64,000 bases of DNA from assembly GCF_963506605.1 (NCBI RefSeq), contig NC_083284.1, forward strand, positions 51,584,001 through 51,648,000. The letters are read 5' to 3'. Positions 1,891 to 59,500 of this stretch are shown piece by piece. The translations under genes and the position numbers were made by a program. The notes under the pieces were generated by a model that saw only the letters and a list, made by a program, of their open reading frames with translations, was not told the DNA's origin and ran no database searches. The stretch's first letter is position 1, and each line of letters begins with the position of its first letter. The stretch is from Zootoca vivipara. Taxonomy: Eukaryota.

Positions 1891-3400
1891 CCTCCAAGAC
1901 TTAATTCTTTCTTTTAGCATTGGAAAGGTGTTTAAATCCTACTTCTTTGTATGTGAGAGTTGGCTCATTGTTTTCCTTTCACAGATTTGTCCTCTGCACA
2001 TGCTCAAGCGACTAATAATTAACTGTGATTTTTTTCTCTGAAGGAACTTCCAGGAACAAGCTTGTTTGATTAATAATATTCCTTACCTACAGGAGTCATT
2101 GTCTCTTGATTTAAAGTGTTTATTTCTTTTTGGTTGTATGATTCTTCTTTTATCAGCTATAGGGTAAAGTTCAAACACTTAGCTATTGTATGTTGTCTTC
2201 TTTCTAAGATGGTTGGATTTTTTCTTAGCTACAGCAGGTTCTAGGTTTTTACATGAACAATCTTAATTCGGTTGTAGTTTGGGACTAAATTTGGTGCAAA
2301 TAGTTGGATTTTCTATGTTGGCTGCTACACCATCTTGGCAGTATTCATTTTTTCCTTATTTGCTGAAGTATATAGATGCAGCTTAACCAAACAGTTTGCA
2401 GAGTATTTTTTAGTTCATTTCTGTGGGTATGTGAATGCATAGCAGTCTATTAGCATTTTTTCTTCATTTTAGCATTTTTTACAAGTCTTATTTGCATATT
2501 TTATTTTGAATATATCCTCTCAACATTTTGGAAGGCATGAGACCTCTGCTTTGATTTCTCTTTTGTGTAATTTCTTGGGATTCTTTCTGCAGTAGTGCTT
2601 AGGTTTTATCTTTCTCTTAAATGTTAGATTCTTGGATTTTCCTGTGATCTTCTGGGTCTCTTTGTCAGAGAATACAATCCTATATCTATTACTAGCCTTA
2701 GATTTAATATGTTGTGGCTGCAATTCTTTATATTTTATTCTTTATTTCTCATGCTTATTCATATTGCTGTTATTTCCTATGAAGATTTTAGTCTTTTTGT
2801 ATTTGGCTCTCCTGGATATAGTATGTCAATCTATTTTCTTATTGTTAAGTCCTATTGCTGCTATTTCTTTCTTCAGTTTGCATTTTCTTTCCTCTAACGC
2901 TTCTTCTTGAAGTTGGCTTTCTTGGCTACACAAGTAGTTTATGGTGTATTTTGCTCTTGTGATCATAATTAAGAGGTGATCCATTCTTTGCCCTCTGTCA
3001 CCAAAAAGCTTGCTGTGGGATTCTCTCAGATCTCAAATTCTATTGAAGATTAAAACAGCATTGTTTAATTTTTCTGCAAAGAGTGCATGTGCCAGTCCAG
3101 CAATGGTTTTCTTATTTCTCTGACCTATATTGGTCCATTCAAAAGCATGGATGCTCTCTATTTAAATACATTTTGTATTTTACTGCCTATTTCTTTGGCT
3201 CTGTTTTTAAGAAGGTGCCCAACAGGAAGTTTGATATTCTAACCTGTAATTGGAGTCTTTTCAGTATTTTAGAATGCTTATATTTTTCATAGCTTCTTTC
3301 CACATGATTAATGTGAAGAATTTGTCTTTTCCATATGATTCTATTATTTTTAATTATTAAATCTCAGTTTGCTTGCTGAACGCCAGGACTGAAGGTTTTC
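1891..3400 (-). mobile_element. Degenerate L1-like ORF1 region
   Basis: A-rich minus strand with broken Lys/Arg-rich frames and remnants resembling L1 ORF1 motifs (EDH-RKSKNLTF ~ EDRSRRNNLR; W-x-FP-x-KITV); boundaries approximate. Confidence 0.45.
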
Positions 3401-3649
3401 TGGTATATTTGCATTATAAGGTTTGTATCCAGTGTGAATCAGAATAGTAGATTTATCTTCTAACAGGTAGCACTGAGGTTCGCTACGATATTAATCCAAA
3501 TTCTATCTCAACATATTAGCGTAAGATTCTGTGGGAGCTAAAAAGTGCAGGCGCATTATAGGAAGATGTGCCTGGCATCTCAAATGTGAACATATGATCA
3601 AATGCCATTGTTACTATTCAAGGTCTCAGAGTCTTTGCCCCTTAGAGTA

Positions 3650-4554
3650 AGTCTCTTGCCAAACATAAACAAAAAAAGGAGGAATACCTATATACCTATG
3701 GGTCTTTGTTATTATTTGGGTCTTCAGTATTATTTATATTGAACACATTAAATTAACTCAAATTTACTAAATTAAATCATTTGAATATTTAGAAATATAT
3801 GGGGGAGGGGTTTTGCAATTGTGCTTTTTCCTCAGGTAAACCAATCCAGATATAGCAAGATGGGTGAAACCGTGGATCGATGGCATCAAGGGTTACAGCA
3901 GGAGTCGAGCCTGCTACAGGAGTTGGCGAATCTGCGAATACAGGATCCACTGCCGCAGGGGGATCCACAGAGGAATCGGGACCGTGTGCCACTACAGCAT
4001 CATCGAGTCACCTGAGGCCAAGTGAAAGCCTTATCCATGCAGGTTACTGAAATACTGAGAGTTCATGGCGTTGCGATGACACCTGAAAATCATCTCCTTG
4101 CTTCTTTTTCTTGTTTGACATCCACCTCTGCGAGGCCGCGTGATCATGACTACCATCGGCTACAGTAAAAGGGGACTGAAGGACACTGCTTGCCAGTTTC
4201 AGGGACACATCTTCTCCGTTGAGGAAATGGGTTATTTAGTTAAAGTTTGGAACATACGTTAAAGTTATTGGACCCTCACTTCTTGAGAGACTCAGTAATC
4301 TTATGGCGCTGATACAAAGTCTACCTGAAGAGACTGTTGCATTGTTTTCTATAATGCTTATTTATGTTTTGATACATTGTTCTATTTGTACCTGATGCTA
4401 AGTGGTTTGAAAGGTTACAAAGTTTATATATGTTTAAAAGCTTTGACAGCCTGTGCTCGTAAAAGCAGCAACAAAGTTCTACACAAGCACTCAGTACCGT
4501 TACATTTCTCTCCCTGTCAGCCTAGGTTCATTTTTAAACAAAAGAAAGGGGACA
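3650..4554 (+). mobile_element. Class II (beta-like) ERV internal remnant: integrase C-terminus plus deleted env
   Basis: WGRGFAIV at 3800-3823 and frameshifted ARWVKPW (class II integrase C-terminus); env-type acceptor TTTTCCTCAG at 3835; env leader motif T[W]GQVKAL...TPENHLLA; U-tract and PPT TTTTTAAACAAAAGAAAGGGG at 4531-4551; left boundary uncertain. Confidence 0.75.
3860..4168 (+). pseudogene. Betaretroviral env signal peptide / Rec-Rem-like ORF with one nonsense codon
   Basis: MGETVDRWHQGLQQESSLLQELANLRIQD...HHRVT*GQVKALSMQVTEILRVHGVAMTPENHLLASFSCL; TGA 4013-4015 sits at the Trp position of the TW[AG]Q motif. Confidence 0.7.
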
Positions 4555-5174
4555 TGTGGGGTTGGTGTATGATAGTAGCGTGGCAAACCCGCTAATCCTT
4601 AGGTTTAGCTAGAGTAATACTGGCAAACCAGTACAGTGTTAGGAATAGGAAGGTGAGGTATGGGTCAGTTGTGTTGGGAGAAGCTGGATGGACCTGGAGA
4701 GGTTCGGTTGAAACTGGTTTGATCTAGCCTGACAGGGAAAGATCGGGATGGGTCATGCTGAGGTGAGAAGAGCACAATGAATCCTTATGGGGAGTTTGGA
4801 AAGTTACTGAGGATCACAAGACTGAGAGGAGGGGGATGTTTGATGAGAGGGACATGTGACAGGTACTTGATGTGTGGGATGTGCAGTCCACCACTTCCTC
4901 TATGGTGGAGAAGTTAGGGTGTTGGCAGGAAGTGACCTGTACCTGTACATGTTTATGCATGAGGTTTGTTCTGTGATTGGCTGGAAGTTACATCGTGAGT
5001 TAATGTTTACCTGTCAAAGCTGCTGCTAATAAATACAGACCCCCGAGCTTTGCCTGGGGTTGTTCTTTGTGGAACTCAGCCTTGTCTTATGTCTCATTGT
5101 TGGATCTAACCATTGCTACATTCAGGGGTATGCGTCCCCCCAGAAGAAAAGCACTGGTGGCAACCACCTCTTCA
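4555..5174 (+). mobile_element. 3' LTR of class II ERV (~620 bp)
   Basis: Starts TGTGGGG after the PPT; AATAAA 5028-5033; ends GGCAACCACCTCTTCA, resembling ERVK-type U5 ends (alternative end at 5179). Confidence 0.7.
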
Positions 5175-6092
5175 TAACAATTTTTGAACATATAGATTAA
5201 CCATCTTAACAAAAAGTAGGCCTCTGAACTGCTGCACATATGTGACATCATTTAATTTGTGAACACTCAAGTTGAATGTGAAACATCTCAAGTGAAAAAT
5301 AGTGATGATGTTGGATGATGTGAAATTTCTATCTGGTAACTAATTTGCAAGTGAACTTGCATGTGTGGCCTCTTAGTTTTGTGCATGCAGGATCTTTCAA
5401 AGACAAACTTGTTAGAAAGTCTCCCACTGAGGCTTAGCTCTTTCCTATTGAAGGAAAGCTTCTTCAACAGCCATGATATATTGTGTTAGGCAGCTGCAGA
5501 CAGCTATTGGCTTATGCCTCTGAACACCAAAGCAGGCAGTATTTAAGAGTGTTTGCAGCTACTGTATATGAATACTTGTTGGAACACATGGTGCTGTACT
5601 GAATTTATAAAAACCACCAACTTTGATTGGTGCATGACTTAAGGCCCTAAAACAGCTCAGGACCAGGTTACTTGTGAGATTGCCCTGTCCCTTAGATTCA
5701 CCTAGTAGATTGCTGCCATCTGAGGGAGAGTTTTTCCTGCAAGTTCCAGAGATCTCAGAAGCCCATTCCACAATAATTCAGAGCAGAGTTGTTAGTGGGG
5801 CCCTGTTTTGTGGAATAGCATTTCTTTCACAATACAACAGGCACCCACTGTCTGCACTTTCTGAAAACAATGTTTTAAATTCATTTTTTGTTTTTCACGT
5901 TTAACTGTTTTTAATTATTTGTAAATTGCCTTGAGACAATGGTTTAGAAGACAATTAAACAATGGTAGTAATAATAACAAAAAATAAACTAATGTGTCTG
6001 GTTGTATGGAATATATAAATATTTTAAAACCTGGTTAAAAGTTATAATCCTCAAATAACTATTTATTTTGAAATAACTGTTTGCTTTAAAAG

Positions 6093-6407
6093 GATGAAGA
6101 ATATGTTTATATAATGGATGAAAATGGAAATATTGAAGAAAAAGCAAACACATACCACAACCTTACAGAAAGAAAATCTTTAACAGCAACACACGAAAAC
6201 AGAGAGCCGAACACCAAGAAAAGCTCAAGTATCACAGGGGACCATGAAAATGACACCTGCTTTTTGGAAGCTGCTGAGGATATAGAACTAGCTGAAGTTG
6301 CTGAAACCTTGGAGTTTCAGCCTTGGAGTACAGATGAAATACCTGATGATCTCCTAATAGAGGTTTCAAGAAAACACAAAGGAGATGAAACAAAAAACTC
6401 TACTTAA
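6093..6407 (+). CDS. PRIMPOL: PRIMPOL last coding exon (acidic RPA-binding tail)
   Basis: Acceptor ttgctttaaaag|GAT; reads DEEYVYIMDEN...DTCFLEAAEDIELAE...DEIPDDLLIEVSRK, matching the RBM-A and RBM-B motifs of PrimPol; AATAAA at ~6405 and ~6425; synteny with CENPU and ACSL1. Confidence 0.88.
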   Translation, partial: DEEYVYIMDENGNIEEKANTYHNLTERKSLTATHENREPNTKKSSSITGDHENDTCFLEAAEDIELAEVAETLEFQPWSTDEIPDDLLIEVSRKHKGDETKNST

Positions 6408-32500: not shown

Positions 32501-35500
32501 TCCTGGTAAAGAGGCCTCAGCTGCTACAGTGGTGTATTGTCTCCCTCCTCCATTTGATGGCTGGGTACTAAATGTTCTGAGCTGCTTAATCATCTGTCTT
32601 GGGGAAGAGTCTGAAATGCCTGGCATTCTATGTATTAAGGTTGGTATCCCAGGAGGGATACTATGCAACTTAGCTTTGCAGTTTGAACCCTTTCAGGTAT
32701 ACTGTGCAGCTGTGTTCTGGTGGCAGCACACTCTACTACAACAATTTGCTGCAATTGATCCACTGTAGCAATCGGGACCTCCTGGAGGTGCAGTTGCTGT
32801 GACTGATCCACCTCTTCCTGCCCCCACAGGTAATCAGAGGGCTGCACTGCTAAATCCCTGGGCATATTCATCCATTCCTCCATTGTCGATATATCGATCC
32901 ACAGCTGGGCCTTTCTACTAGTTGTCTAACAGCTGCAGATGGAATGCCAACATAAAGAAATGTAGTAATTGTGGTAATACGAATTTTGCATTGTCTTAAC
33001 TCCACTGAAAGGCCAGCTTCTACATCACAATCCTGATGGTGGTGTTGACTGACCCTTAAGTTAAGTATAGTACAGTGTTTCCCAACCAGTGTGCCTCCAG
33101 ATGTTTTGGGACTACAACTCCCATCATCCCTAGCTAGCAAGACCAGTGGTCAGGAATGATGGAAGTTGTAGTCCCAAAACATCTGGAGGCACACTGGTTG
33201 GGAAACACTGGTATTGTAGCTTGAAGAAATGGTCTGCGTTCAAGTCAGAATGAAACTGGTTCAGTATAAAAAACAAAGGTGCATTGCTGTCACCAGTGTT
33301 GTTTATTCTCAGATTCCTCTCGCCTATTTGGAAGCTTCACATTTCTGGCATCTGTTGCTGTTCCCTTATTTGACATTACCGGTATTTTCCTCTTTTCCAT
33401 CCCTTGTAGAATTAAACCAAGTAGTCACCACCCCAGTCTGAATGCTGTTTCTGTCATTAACCTGTTTTCCCCCCTGTAATTAACTTCATATTATTCAGTG
33501 CTTTGGCTTGCCATCCAGATGACACTTGTACAACAGACAATTTGATCTACACATGCAGACAAGGACATGCTTAAGTTACTTCTAAAGCCTTAGCAGTATG
33601 ATGCTGCATCAAATCACACAGACTTTTTTTGTGAGTGAAGCTTAAGAGAACATTGGGTTGTGTTCCACTAAGTCCTACTTGGAGCAGGCCCATAAAAATC
33701 AATAAACTACATTAGTTGTATCCATTAACTTCAATGGGTCTACTCTGAGTAGGATTAGTAATGGGCCAACCATCGTTCTTACTAACTTGCACTAATTTTT
33801 GCATTTTAATTGGTTTCTGATTAAAGGACTGAAGCAGCCTTCTGGTACCTTTCCCATTCTAACCTGAGACACTCTTAAATGAGGATAAAACATGTTTGTG
33901 AAGTTAAAAAAGAGAATGCAAAGAGGAAAGAAGATATGTAGGGCATGGACAATGGAAAGACTGGACACCTCTATCTGTGGAATTAAAGCAATGGCAAACT
34001 ATCTTGAAATTTGTTATGTCTCAAAATGCTCGATTCACAGGTTTACTTACTGGTAACCATTTCCCGATATCTCCGGTGTGTACCCAGCCATCTTTGTCAA
34101 GAACTTCTGCAGTCTTTTCAGGTTCCTTCAGATAGCCTAGGAACACATTTGGCCCTTTTACGCAAACCTGAAAAAGAATGAAACACATGGTCTGTAAAAA
34201 ATATATCTGCAAAACAGGTTTCTCCTATTAAGTGTTTCTTTTTTAATAAAAAATCATTTATTAGTTTTCCAATACAAACAGCCAATTATAATATTCCAAA
34301 TACAATATTCCAATTAAAAACAATAAACTAAAAAAAACACAACCAAATTGTAATCCAAATTGTTAATTATTAATTTTTCCCAGGCTCCCCATAGTCTGGA
34401 CCTCTGAAGCATATTTCCGATGTCTTATTCCTGATCTTCTGTTGTTTTCCTGTTTTCCACATTCCAATCTTATCTCTTTAAAGTTCTCCGTCCCTGGCTC
34501 TGCAATTCTCTCTTTTTTTTTTTTTGAAAAAGACTTTATTGTTTAAAATAATACAGAGTAGAACATATGCATGATATGAATACAACGATAGTTTCCTCCT
34601 CGTCGTATCTCATACAAAAGAAAAATAAATAAATACAGAAGAACTAAATACATAATTCAAAATACAAAATAAATTCTTCTTCGCAATGTGAACCGTATAT
34701 TATCTTTATGTTAAATCCTATTTCTTCCTTCTTAGAAACTTCCCGTCCTTCCAATATTACACTTCCAAATTCTTTGTTTTCTACGGGTCTTCGTTATAAC
34801 TTTCTTCCTTTCTTCTCAATTTTCCCTTAATCTCATTTTTATATTACAAACGTTAATCTATATCTGCCAATATGGAATTATTAGGATAATACATTTTTAA
34901 GTATTTTTTGTAGACCTTCCACTCTTTGGATACTTTTTGTGTTGATGATTCTCTTACTGAGTCAGTGAGTTTAGCCAGTTGTACATATTCTAACATAAGT
35001 GTTTGCCACTCCAATATAGTGGGTAAGGTCTCACTCTTCCACTTTCTTGCCACTAATACCCTGGCCGCAGTCATTGCATACAGCAGTAAGGATTTTGTTT
35101 CTTTTGGAGTTTCTGGTGGTAGTATGTTTAATAAGAATAGTTCCGGCCTTTTTTTTATTGACTGTTTAAATAGTTTTTTGATTTCTTCGTATATATTATT
35201 CCAATATCTTTTAATTTCCTGGCAGGTCCACCACATGTGGTAATATGTTCCAATTTCTTTTTTACAACGCCAGCATTGGGGACTTGGTCCTCCATACATT
35301 TTTGCAAGTTTTTTGGGGGTATAGTGCCACCTATAGAATACTTTCATATTATTCTCCTGCAGACTATAGCATGCTGTGAATTTCATATTATCAGCCCACA
35401 TTTTCTCCCATTGATCCATTTGTATGTTGTGGCCGATGTCCTGGGCCCACTTAATCATCACAGCTTTAGTCTGCTCCTCCTTTGTTTCCCACTCCAGGAG

Positions 35501-38500
35501 GTGATCATATACCAAGGAAATATTCTTCTTTTTAATCCTGATTAAATTTGTTTCAAATTTTGACGTTTCAGTTGCCAATCCTTCCTTTATATCTGTTTTA
35601 AATTTTTGATTTAATTGAAAGTATTGAAACCAATCCGTTAGATGTTTTTTGATTTCCTCATGTTCTTTCAACACTAATTTTCCTTCTTTGATTTCTAATA
35701 CATCTCTATATGTTAGCCAATCATTTCTCATATTTCTTCTTTTCACCGCTACTGCTTCTAGCGGTGATGTCCAGAGTGGAATTTTTGGTTCTAATATTCC
35801 TTTGTATTTGGTCCAAATATTAAACAAAGATTTCCTTACTATATGATTTAAAAAACCCCTGTGTGCTTTGATTTTCCCATATATTAAATAGGAGTGCCAT
35901 CCGAACCTCGTGTCGTGGCCTTCAAGATCTAAAATATCCGTTCTTTCTAATTTAATCCATTCTCCCAACCAGATTAATCCTGCTGCTGCGTGATAGAGTT
36001 CTAGATCAGGCAAGGCAAATCCTCCTCTTGTTTTCTTATCAATCAGAAGTTGGTGCTTTATTCTAGGCTTCTTGCCATTCCACACAAATCTTGCTATCTC
36101 CCTTTTCCACTCTTTAAAGCATTTAGATCCTCCTAATATTGGGATGGCTTGAAATAAGAACATCATCTTTGGCAAGATGTTCATCTTAACTGCCGATATT
36201 CTCCCCCATAGTGATAGGTGCAGTTTGTTCCACATTTCCATATTTCTTTTTATATCCTTCCATGTTCGGTTATAGTTGTCTTCATATAGATTTAAATTAT
36301 TATTTGATATCCAAATTCCTAGATATTTTCCTTTATTTGTTATTTCTAGTCCTGTTTTTTCCTGTAGTTTCTTTTTCTCTTCCTGTCTTAAGTTTTTGGT
36401 TATCATTTTTGTTTTTTGAAGATTTATTTTCATTCCCATTAGTTTCCCAAAATTTACAACTGTTTCCATCACCACTGGTATACTCTGTTGGGGGTCCTGA
36501 GTTGTTACGATCAGGTCGTCGGCAAATGCTTTTAACTTATACACCCTTTCCCCGACTTTTATTCCTAATATAGTTTCTTTACTTCTAATTTCCTGTAGAA
36601 GGGGCTCTAGCGCTAGAATAAAGAGTAAGGGTGATACTGGACAGCCCTGCCTTGTTCCTTTACCTATTTTGATTTTCTCTGTCACATTACCATTAACCAA
36701 TAATCTCGCTGATTGTTTGCTATATATGGCTCCTATTCCCTTTCTAAACTTTTCCCCGATGTTCATTATTTCTAGTTGTTTCTTTATGTACTGCCACGAG
36801 ACATTATCGAATGCCTTTTCTGCATCCAGGAGTAACAATGCTGCTTCTCTTTCGTTGTTAACTTCCAGAAATTCTATTATGTCCACAATGTTTCTTGTGT
36901 TGTCTGTTATTGATCTTCCTGGAAGGAACCCTGCTTGATCTGGGTGTATAACCTCCTGTAAGGCTTCCTTTAATCTATTGGCAAGTATGTTTGCGAAAAT
37001 TTTGTAATCGCAGTTTAGGAGCGAGATTGGTCTGAAGTTTGACATCAGTTCCAAATCTCCTCCTTGCTTGGGGATAAGAGTAATATACGCCTCTGACCAA
37101 GAGTCAGGCATTGTGCCACTTTCTAAAATTTTATTCATAATCTCCTTAAGCGGCGTTGTCAATATTTCTGCCAGTTTTTTGTAATATTCCGATGGTAGAC
37201 CATCGGGACCCGGTGATTTGCCTGTTTTTAATTTCTGTATTGCTCTCATTATTTCAGTTTCCGATATTGGGTTATTTAATTTTTGTAATTTCTCCTCTCT
37301 TATGTCAGGTATTTTATGTTGTTGTAGATATTTCCCTATCTGTTCTTCTTTTCCTACCTCCGGTTTGTATAGGTTTTCGTAGAATTTCACGAACTTTTTA
37401 GTTATTAAGAAGGGGTCATCTATTGTTTTCTCTCCCACTCTTATTCTATTTATTTGTTTTCCCAATTCTCTCTTTTTCAGCTGCCACGCAAGGTATTTTC
37501 CGGGCTTATTTGCAAATTCAATACAGTAGACACTGGCTCTGCAATTCTCAATCCTGTCCAAAATCATATACAGTGGTACCTTGACTTACGAAGACGATCC
37601 ATTCCGCGGTCGTCTTTGTAAGTCGAGGTTTTCATAGGTCGAAGTGCCGCTACGGCGCATGCGCGACCGCACGCACCGAAAAGACTTCCGGAGGCTTCGA
37701 CTTCGGAAGTCGAATTCTTTGGAAGTCGAAGCCTTTGTAAGTCAAGGTATGACACTATCCTTACATCCATCAAGCACAGTTGTATTTAAAAATGTCTATT
37801 TTTTCAACTTGTTTGTTAGTGCAGCTTCTCCTTCCTCATTCCAATCGCTGATCCAGGCTGTTATCTAAATCTTCTTTTGAAGTTTTATGATGCAGCAACT
37901 CCCAAATTATAATAAAGTTGTTACGTTATTCCCTCCGGTGCTGTTGTCCAACTCTGTCTTTGATGTTAGGCATATGTTTGCACTCCACAGATATAAATCA
38001 TTTGGCAATCGATCAGCTTTCGGAGACCACACAATCCCCCTTCCCGGGCCCTAGGAGGGTGGCTGCTAGACATCCATTTTGGGATGTCTCTCTCACCCTT
38101 AATGAAAGTCATGCAAACAAATGCTCTGTATTTTATTTCAAATTATTGTCTCGAATCACTGCAAAGTCAGCCAACAAGCATCTCCCTCTTCCCTCAAAAC
38201 AGGGAGAAACTTTCATTTTTCTATTTTTGCTGCGTCACAGGCGCCATCTTAATTCTTTTCTTTATCAAGTCTTTCAAACCAAACAAAGTTGCGCAGTTGA
38301 GCATTTAATTATAAATAGAAGTCCATCTGTACTCCTCAAAATAAATTAGGTCTCTTAATGAGGCTTGGCGTAGAAAACCAGTTATAAGTATTGAAGTGAA
38401 GAAAGCACATATCAGTCCTCCTCCATAATCCAAACATCATGACGAGAATCAGGTTTGAAGTCTGAGCTTAAACACCAGGGACTGCACAATTCTGTAGGTT

Positions 38501-57482: not shown

Positions 57483-59500
57483 TTATTATTTATACCCCGC
57501 CCATCTGGCTGGGTTTCCCCAGCCACTCTGGGCGGCTTCCTACAGAAAAATAAAATAAAATAATTGATTAAACATTAAAAGCCTCCCTAAACAGGGCTGC
57601 CTTCAGATGTCTTCTAAAAATCTGGTAGCTGTTTTTCTCTTTGACATCTGATGGGAGGGCGTTCCACAGGGCGGGCACCACTACCGAGAATGCCCTCTGC
57701 CTGGTTCCCTGCAACTTGGCTTCTCGAAACAAGGGAACCGCCAGAAGGCCCTTGGCGCTGGACCTCAGTGTCCAGGCAGAACGATGGTGGAGACGCTCCT
57801 TCAGGAATACTGGACCGAGGCCATTTAGGGCTTTAAAGGTCAGCACCAACACTTTGAACTGTGCTCGGAAACGTACTGGGAGCCAATGTAGATATTCCAA
57901 GACCGGTGTTATGTGGTCTCGGTGACCGCTCCCAGTCACCAGTCTAGCTGTCGCATTCTGCATTAGTTGTAGTTTCTGGGTCACCTTCAAAGGTAGCCCC
58001 ACGTAGAGCACATTGCAGTAGTCCAAGCGGGAGATAACTAGAGCATGCACCACTCTGGCGAGACAGTCCGCAGGCAGGTAGGGTCTCAGCCTGCGTACCA
58101 GATGGAGCTGATAGACAGCTGCCCTGGACACAGAACTGACCTGCGCCTCCGTGGACAGCTGTGAGTCCAGAATGACTCCCAGGCTGCGCACCTGGTCCTT
58201 CAGGGGCACAGTTACCCCATTCAGGACCAGGGAGTCCTCCACACCTGCCCGCCTCCTGTCCCCCACAAACAGTACTTCTGTCTTGTCAGGATTCAACCTC
58301 AATCTGTTAGCCGCCATCCATCCTCCAACCACCTCCAGGCACTCACACAGGACCTTCACCGCCTTCACTGGTTCTGATTTGAAAGAGAGGTAGAGCCGAG
58401 TATCATCCGCATACTGATGAACACCCAGTCCAAACCCCCTGATGATCTCTCCTAGCGGCTGCATGTAGATGTTAAAAAGCATGGGGGAGAGGACAGAGCC
58501 CTGAGGCACCCCACAAGTGAGAGCCCAGGGGTCCGAACACTCATCCCCCACCACCACTTTCTGAACACAGCCCAGGAGGAAGGAGCGGAACCACTGCATG
58601 ACAGTGCCCCCAGCTCCCAACCCCTCTAGACGGTCCAGAAGGATGTTATGGTCGATGGTGTCAAAAGCCGCTGAGAGATCCAGCAGAACTAGGAAACAGC
58701 TCTCACCTTTGTCCCTAGCCCGCCGGAGATCATCAACCAGTGCGATCAAGGCAGTTTCAGTCCCATGATGAGGCCTGAATCCCGACTGGGATCTTCCAGG
58801 CATGCCTGGAGTTGTTCAGCAACCACTCGCTCAATCACCTTGCCCAAGAATGGAAGATTAGAGACTGGGCGATAGTTGGCCATATTGGCCGCATCTAAAG
58901 ATGGTTTTTTAAGAAGCGGTTTAATAACTGCCTCTTTCAGCGGGTCTGGGAGGGCTCCCTCACAGAGAGAAGCATTCACCAACCCGTGAAGCCCATCGCC
59001 CAGCTGTTCCCGGCTAGCTTTTATAAGCCAGGATGGGCAAGGGTCAAGGAGACAGGTGGTTGGTTTCACTCGTCCAAGCAGCCTGTCCACATCCTCGGAG
59101 GTAACAGATTGGAATTGATCCCACGCAACTGGACTAGACAGGACTCTAGCACTCTCCCGCCCTGGCCCTGCTCCCACGGTGGAGTCTACCTCTTCCCGAA
59201 TCTGAGCAACTTTATCTGCAAAAAAACTTTGCAAAATCGTTGCAGGAGATCATGCGGCCTGTACTGGGCCCCGATGGAGCAGGTGGTTCCACTAAACTGA
59301 ACCACCTGAAAAAGTCTCCTGCTGCTGTTTTCTGCAGATGCAATAGAGGCGGTGAAGAAAGTCTTCTTCGCCGTTGCTACTGCCACTTGGTAGGCTCAAC
59401 ATTGAACTCTAACCAGTGTCTGGTCAGCTTCAGAATGAGTTATCCACCACCGGCGCTCTAGCCGTCTCAGGAATTGTTTCATTGCCCTCAGATCTGTGGA
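57433..59500 (-). mobile_element. 5'-truncated L2-clade LINE with (AAT)n tail
   Basis: YRPVSNLPFLGK, SGFRPHHGTETAL, DLSAAFDT, QYADD, HITPVLEYLHWLPV; frameshifts; microsatellite 57433-57490. Confidence 0.88.

Follow-up and report, generated by a model that had tools for sequence, protein, structure and literature searches.

A putative Rec-like env-leader gene in env-less class II endogenous retroviruses of the lizard Zootoca vivipara

Introduction

When a retrovirus becomes intracellular and loses env, the gene is usually assumed to have gone in its entirety. A 64,000-nucleotide stretch of the Zootoca vivipara genome (RefSeq assembly GCF_963506605.1, contig NC_083284.1, positions 51,584,001 to 51,648,000, forward strand), here called the window and used as the coordinate system, raises the question of whether a part of env can persist as a gene of its own. 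A preliminary description proposed that a class II endogenous retrovirus (ERV) at this locus has reduced its env to a leader like those that give rise to Rec, Rem and Rej. Comparison with related copies indicates that the feature is real and constrained, and that this is an env-less ERV with what appears to be a stand-alone Rec-like gene of the Rec/Rem/Rej kind.

The known systems vary in how such proteins work. In HERV-K the full signal peptide does not export RNA, whereas Rec, whose anchor is cut back and which ends in a new tail, does (PMC2649029). JSRV Rej has its main effect on translation, by way of an element that lies at the 3' end of env (PMC3185594), and in a primate ERV (SERV-K/MER11) the Rec-like product sRec lacks export activity, a constitutive element being present instead (PMC11379458). 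The cited parts of other reports name three betaretroviruses with Rev-like proteins (PMC5568270), predict Rev-like motifs in bat ERVs (PMC3621094) and describe env-less amplification with shared breakpoints (PMC4643047). Ectotherm class II ERVs known earlier number three by a 2025 count (PMC12690878); alpharetrovirus-like and gamma-type Envs are covered elsewhere (PMC13568524, PMC9967133), with their signal peptides called short in the latter.

Results

Organization of the window element

All features of the element are on the forward strand. The class II element contains the 3' end of a nested class I ERV (1–1890), comprising the end of TM, a purine tract and a 1451-bp LTR (440–1890) that is identical at 1451 of 1451 positions to the other LTR upstream; the insertion has a 4-bp target duplication. 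Next are an AT/T-rich non-coding core (1891–3789), which is also present in non-autonomous copies of other lineages, and a frameshifted remnant of the integrase C-terminus (3800–3875), where the helper-derived 3' segment starts. The class II integrase motifs reported at first, WGRGFA (3800–3817) and ARWVKPW (3855–3875), are both there, in two different frames, as is the env-type splice acceptor (3824–3835), a pyrimidine tract with an AG that ends at 3835; its position is the same in lineages B, C and D, and three reads fit its use in lineage D.

The Rec-like env-leader frame runs from an ATG at 3860 to a TAA at 4166–4168 (3860–4168, 102 codons, described earlier as about 100) and is broken by a single internal stop at 4013–4015, which comparison of related copies shows to be private to this copy. 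Its conserved core, a predicted helix pair (4010–4129), ends where the anchor starts in full Envs and corresponds in relatives to about positions 30–76 of the Pfam HERV-K_REC model; a hydrophilic tail of 12 codons follows (4130–4165). The short hydrophobic stretch of the preliminary description exists as part of the second conserved helix, but it is not a signal anchor, and the anchor is missing. Nor does the tail run into the polypurine tract (about 4540–4552) as had been thought, since 374 non-coding nt lie between the stop of the frame and the tract. This 3' non-coding segment (4169–4539) has no SU or TM trace, is homologous in lineages A–D (z 8.5–12 between distant lineages), and contains two predicted hairpins, the first with a 5-bp stem, an invariant 4-nt loop and two compensated pairs (4212–4225; a candidate cis element) and the second with a 4-bp stem and a variable loop (4275–4287). 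The 3' LTR (4555–5120) matches the 5' LTR, which lies outside the window on its upstream side, at 566 of 566 positions, and a 6-bp target duplication follows it. The distance from the integrase motif to the LTR is about 680 nt, close to the 700 or so first given.

This layout is more than chance, because it is common to 18 near-identical copies. There is no pol upstream of the window frame, and the element is non-autonomous: the window copy is a very young, dead passenger with a broken Rec-like frame. Both the class I insertion and its class II host are very recent, because both LTR pairs are identical.

Element family and lineages

The window element belongs to lineage A, a 5.7-kb non-autonomous class II element with the order LTR, primer site, shortened gag, AT-rich core, integrase remnant with acceptor, small frame, 3' segment and LTR. 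A DNA search of the genome, which scored 20 candidates so that copy counts are a lower bound, gave at least 18 lineage A copies at 93–100% identity and at least two of lineage B, which bears pol and is about 75% identical; a protein search with 47 matches brought in lineages C and D, whose level is about 50%. For analysis we took 10-kb regions surrounding the remaining 17 A copies, the two B copies and 20 of 26 remoter matches; with the window copy this gave 40 copies (18 A, 2 B, 6 C and 14 D). Outside this set is a fifth sublineage, I, represented by the four copies examined among seven genome matches to a pattern that missed known copies and gave 84 matches in the control versus seven forward.

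Some elements of lineages B, C and D contain gag, dUTPase-pro and pol. In lineage D these are separate frames with Gag_p10, dUTPase, RVP, RVT_thumb, Integrase_Zn and IN_DBD_C domains, and the best PDB matches are 7sr6, 7usf and 3jca, which we take to be HERV-K reverse transcriptase and MMTV integrase. A pol tree drawn from this one genome (8 rows, midpoint root) places B, C and D in a clade with 100/100 support, apart from the env-bearing lineages E, F and G. Of 35 copies measured, 28 have LTR pairs with 99% identity or more, pointing to recent multi-copy spread. In the host genome three tRNA-Trp genes match the primer site, the tRNA-Lys primer site typical of Betaretrovirus (PMC3621094) is absent, and the element is filed here under class II and not under Betaretrovirus.

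The AT/T-rich core is 41% T and has about 67–90% identity among non-autonomous elements bearing the ends of different helper lineages (window 1891–3789 compared with L079, L075, L087, L090 and L178–L181). None of three pol-bearing elements tested has it, and it seems to be a parasite core that swaps its ends; an origin as decayed or inverted pol is unsupported, with six-frame Pfam searches empty. The shortened gag is open for 323 codons in lineage A (L033:4453–5424), with a matrix domain and a hydrophobic C-terminal segment, and for about 330 codons in non-autonomous copies of lineage D.

Loss of env at a shared end point

The deletion is not private to this locus: SU and TM are missing from all 40 copies in the four lineages, and tblastn with seven env queries gave no trace of env in the 40 3' regions (best E 0.44). 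Related copies have a frame of 95–114 codons behind the pol acceptor, and it stops at a homologous codon in 39 of the 40, the remaining one being frameshifted, so that the env-less family proposed in the preliminary description stands, with a shared end point. The tail is 12 codons long in all five lineages, and the purine tract lies 337–425 nt past the stop in 37 copies and 717 nt past it in one (not found in two). An env-bearing leader used as the query matches env-less copies up to the anchor boundary or thereabouts.

No env-bearing member of the env-less pol clade was found in the genome, and the loss junction therefore cannot be mapped. The simplest reading would be a single deletion of env in the common ancestor, although a fossilised rec-type splice may instead have given rise to the env-less form. 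That the tail is the old Env cytoplasmic tail is unsupported, there being no tblastn trace. Elsewhere in the genome (L131, L132; L115, L129), the Rec-like leader of lineage E is strongly basic, includes the full anchor and is joined to a gamma-type, alpharetrovirus-like env, and lineages F and G have env without a Rec-like leader.

Similarity to Rec-type env leaders

A match to Rec profiles had been anticipated; it is seen in the relatives but not in the window's broken frame, which has no Pfam match. HERV-K_REC (PF15695) matches 8 of 8 tested members weakly (best E 8.8e-4), all below its curated cut-off of 27.5 bits. Run blind over the genome, the model gives five matches at E<=10, of which three are env-less frames and two are noise, and PF13804 (HERV-K_env_2) gives three, none reaching the cut-off. 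A protein profile built from eight natural open frames and searched against 1.84 billion proteins retrieves 32 at E<=0.001, the best being the leader of a full Env of Rhinatrema bivittatum (E 1.7e-19); among the ten looked up, the other named matches are from Anolis sagrei, Sceloporus undulatus, Mauremys mutica and Gopherus agassizii. Four of the five named proteins extend into SU or SU/TM, and three have weak gamma-type or avian gp85 Pfam matches. In 30 of the 32 the match ends at profile position 85–91, ahead of a hydrophobic segment; the homology comprises an N-terminal motif and the helix pair, stopping just before the hydrophobic anchor of full Envs.

HERV-K_REC also matches 26 of these 32 proteins, two of them above the cut-off. 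An hhalign comparison gives 98.7% against leaders found with the same profile and hence is partly circular, and a third search gives 591 leader-like proteins, almost all of them without a name, with no named Rec among the 120 listed. Word-indexed homologue searches at near and longer lengths gave no relative; the full profile search alone found them. With leaders of full Envs as its profile matches and weak matches to HERV-K_REC, the proposed homology to Rec-type env leaders is supported, and no outcome that the preliminary description named as refuting its proposal was seen. The leader is not confined to squamates: a caecilian and turtles also have it, on Envs that are gamma-type and alpharetrovirus-like.

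The peak 15-residue hydropathy is 0.8–1.3 in four env-less frames versus 2.3–3.2 in nine leaders whose anchor is complete; six profile hits that are short or truncated are intermediate (1.3–2.3). Lineage E of the same genome has the equivalent leader with anchor and env. An AlphaFold model (pTM 0.42) has confident helices at residues 59–76 and 82–97, the first with hydrophobic residues at regular spacing, and a low-confidence N-terminal half, whose length varies by 20 residues. A Foldseek search with the two-helix model has a HERV-K Env fragment in first place (E 0.044) and the RNA export protein of MMTV in tenth (E 0.78), which is suggestive but not significant. As first noted, there is no obvious Arg-rich stretch: the frames have at most 3–5 R/K per 10 residues, mixed with acids, and a net charge of +2 to +4. 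The maximum is 7 per 10 in env-bearing lineage E, and several env-bearing homologues are no more basic than the env-less frames. Encoded at the env-leader position behind the pol acceptor, the frame is, to judge from these comparisons, a Rec-like env leader minus its membrane anchor.

Selection on the frame

The first half of the frame overlaps the tail of the pol frame, and the tested segment is the 26 codons past the pol stop, which it follows in all lineages. A codon model for 38 of the 40 copies (26 distinct; two frameshifted or deleted copies excluded; fast runs, no CpG term) gives omega 0.13 for the pol-free helix pair (p about 2e-17 versus omega 1), in agreement with the dN/dS below 1 that had been predicted. 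For the tail, omega is 0.35 (p 0.02), and for pol-bearing copies it is 0.20. Within lineages it is 0.28 in A+B (p 1e-3), 0.32 in A alone (p 1e-3) and 0.22 in D alone (p 2e-5), a set of 14 near-identical env-less copies; because these within-lineage values cover only env-less copies, the constraint appears to have outlasted env.

Between distant lineage pairs the 26-codon segment has pS 0.67–0.95 and pN 0.15–0.30 (0.18 for A versus B), compared with pS 0.63–0.82 and pN 0.15–0.27 for pol among B, C and D. Among B, C1 and D, pN of the frame is 0.16–0.22, the level of pol. Identity is 70% in frame versus 33% in both shifted frames, which contain stops, and differences are mostly at third codon positions (4/4/17 between C1 and D, for example).

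Helpers and passengers

Five of the 18 lineage A copies have an open frame, as do both copies of B, 1 of 6 of C and 9 of 14 of D; by type, it is open in 7 of the 8 copies grouped as pol-bearing (one partly so) versus 10 of the 32 others. One stop is common to 11 of the 18 lineage A copies, including young copies with identical LTRs, and a tree of 15 of them, with supports of 26–74, does not resolve a single origin for it. All four copies of sublineage I have a common stop and a first-helix deletion and none is open, with tail and hairpin motif kept. Because passengers often carry dead frames yet retain the hairpins, the protein is not needed in cis, and the 3' segment is kept; this pattern of non-autonomous decay fits a trans-supplied protein acting on a cis RNA element. 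The constraint comes mainly from the pol-bearing helpers, because the window's sublineage is mostly passenger.

The 3' segment and its hairpins

The two small hairpins are predicted in 8 of 8 aligned copies, with 97% of cells able to pair and three pairs compensated. The covariation score exceeds that of all 500 shuffles, and the count of compensated pairs is reached by 105 of 500, the aligned rows being related. A strict hairpin-1 pattern occurs in 32 of the 40 env-less copies versus none of 20 env-bearing class II loci, lineage E included, and thus leader and hairpin are not always linked, because lineage E has the leader without the motif. Folding of the whole segment shows no gain over shuffles (z 0.88, with local z between 0.16 and 0.90 for four lineages and at -1.63 for a fifth), and three loci searched in Rfam have no match at E<=1. 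The hairpin-bearing segment is a candidate cis element only. In lineage C (L073, L075) about 50 extra nt lie between the stop and hairpin 1 and resemble a second, varied hairpin unit.

RNA evidence

Three raw RNA-seq runs of one study, of which about 6% was read, were mapped to one A and one D copy, with 3943, 368 and 367 reads on the former and 1149, 140 and 51 on the latter; the source copy of these reads may be any. They are mostly in the sense direction by the usual library convention. Neither mapping has splice-joint rows at the acceptor. Three loose-end reads of one run fit a GT-AG splice from a gag-internal donor to the lineage D acceptor (L085:3965/3966 to 8493/8494), the donor being at the end of the gag matrix region, and would fuse part of the gag matrix in frame with the Rec-like frame. 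A consensus donor directly precedes the gag start in all four lineages, and no read used it. In run X12 the small frame of lineage A (L033:8511–8998) shows a drop in sense depth from about 148 to about 4, accompanied by a rise in reads of the opposite direction.

Discussion

A possible role in trans

We lean, with some reserve, towards a Rec-like protein that is the env-less ERV's own gene and would act in trans on element RNA for its export or translation. Pol-bearing helpers would make the anchor-free protein from spliced RNA, through the old env acceptor, and the product would be soluble because no anchor is left. Helpers would supply it in trans to non-autonomous passengers such as the window copy, and it would act on the unspliced RNA of both, likely via the hairpin-bearing 3' segment, promoting nuclear export or translation. 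We infer this Rec-like working of the frame, a candidate member of the Rev-like proteins.

It is unlikely, in our estimate, that the protein is needed for some other role, for example in assembly or against host restriction, with the 3' hairpins forming a constitutive transport element served by host proteins. The weak basic motif would suit such a role, as would the confinement of the hairpin motif to env-less copies with leader-bearing lineage E lacking it, and the three spliced reads, which join the gag matrix part in frame to the Rec-like frame, offer a hint. There are also precedents in sRec with its constitutive element (PMC11379458) and in JSRV, which has both kinds of element (PMC3185594). 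Rec, Rem and Rej, however, are the sole assayed homologues of the domain and are post-transcriptional regulators (PMC5568270, PMC3621094), and the part that is conserved here is the helix region matched by the Rec model.

We give little credence to a fossil constraint, under which the lineages split when they still possessed full envelopes, with the leader kept as a signal peptide. Either env was lost repeatedly at one spot afterwards or recombination spread a single 3' end, and what is left of the frame would now be neutral. The low omega among the near-identical env-less D copies and in A+B weakens this reading, as do the equal 12-codon tail and stop in five lineages with saturated synonymous sites and homologous 3' segments. 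The stop common to 11 of 18 A copies, some of them young, and the amplification of sublineages C2 and I despite dead frames could be read in its favor, although dead frames are concentrated in copies without pol. End swapping, seen in the non-autonomous cores, speaks for it too, as does the fact that no env-bearing clade member by which to date the loss was found in the genome. Conservation due to the overlapping integrase tail or to an RNA element, in place of a Rec-like protein, would draw on the overlap of the first half of the frame with pol but is in effect refuted by a tested segment past the pol stop in all lineages, by the third-position differences, and by shifted frames with stops and low identity.

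Relationship to known elements

MusD/ETn are further env-less ERV retrotransposons, and a MusD study reportedly found reliance on a cis transport element. IAP, FcERV_gamma6 and MLERV1_3 (PMC4643047) resemble the present family in env loss, recent amplification, and helper and non-autonomous partners, but the cited part of that report describes no env-derived frame under selection. The closest parallels to the frame itself are in betaretroviral env leaders. HERV-K(HML-2) Rec likewise originates from the env leader, has about 100 aa and has its shortened anchor replaced by a short polar tail (PMC2649029), and the weak profile and fold matches cover its helix region (PF15695). Unlike it, the present frame is fixed in DNA with no env intron left, has no strong Arg-rich motif, is below the Pfam cut-off, and belongs to an element with a tRNA-Trp primer site.

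JSRV Rej and MMTV Rem share the long env leader and a proposed post-transcriptional role (PMC3185594, PMC5568270), and the Rej response element, at the 3' end of env, is where the hairpins are here (PMC3185594). Those viruses, as the same sources have it, retain a full Env with a peptide releasable by signal peptidase, whereas here there is neither anchor nor Env. SERV-K/MER11 sRec is similar as a Rec-like product retained after a change of the 3' region (PMC11379458), but it is reported as an export-negative splice form in a primate HML-2 relative, and the present frame is unspliced internally. The caecilian ERV-AB-Mun (PMC12690878) resembles lineage E as an ectotherm class II ERV with separate gag, pro and pol and an alpharetrovirus-like, gamma-type env; env is present there, and the passages cited do not mention a Rec-like leader. 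Full-text searches (top results, mostly non-subscription papers, with repeat databases outside their scope) gave no report of an env-less ERV with a retained Rec-like frame, or of such leaders in reptiles.

At somewhat less than even odds, we suggest that these are 'complex' retrotransposons in which an env leader has turned into a stand-alone, intron-free Rec-like gene used in trans on a 3' hairpin element, and that the Rec/Rem/Rej module is an ancient, env-independent cassette. If so, the module would not be a speciality of mammalian betaretroviruses but would occur from caecilians to turtles and lizards on alpharetrovirus-like Envs, with the env-less family as its natural minimal form. The finding of such leaders in lizards, turtles and a caecilian, where they are part of gamma-type Envs, also sets the origin of the domain much further back. 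The two jobs of the leader appear to be split here, in that the ER-targeting anchor was lost with SU and TM and the cytoplasmic helix pair is conserved like pol, and this split would be genetic evidence for an envelope-independent role of the leader domain outside mammals. A minimal protein with a short candidate RNA element may also help to define what Rec-type proteins require, including whether the Arg-rich motif is dispensable.

Other observations

Four near-identical decayed copies of the leader lie on one contig (L154–L156 and C4:98.04 Mb), three of them about 50 kb apart. In the window, downstream of the element, an acidic 105-codon frame (6090–6407, + strand) resembles the last exon of a host gene and suggests that the element is in an intron. 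Two long open frames on the opposite strand, of 910 codons (34853–37585, - strand) and 415 codons (57568–58815, - strand), are presumably of the LINE reverse-transcriptase type.
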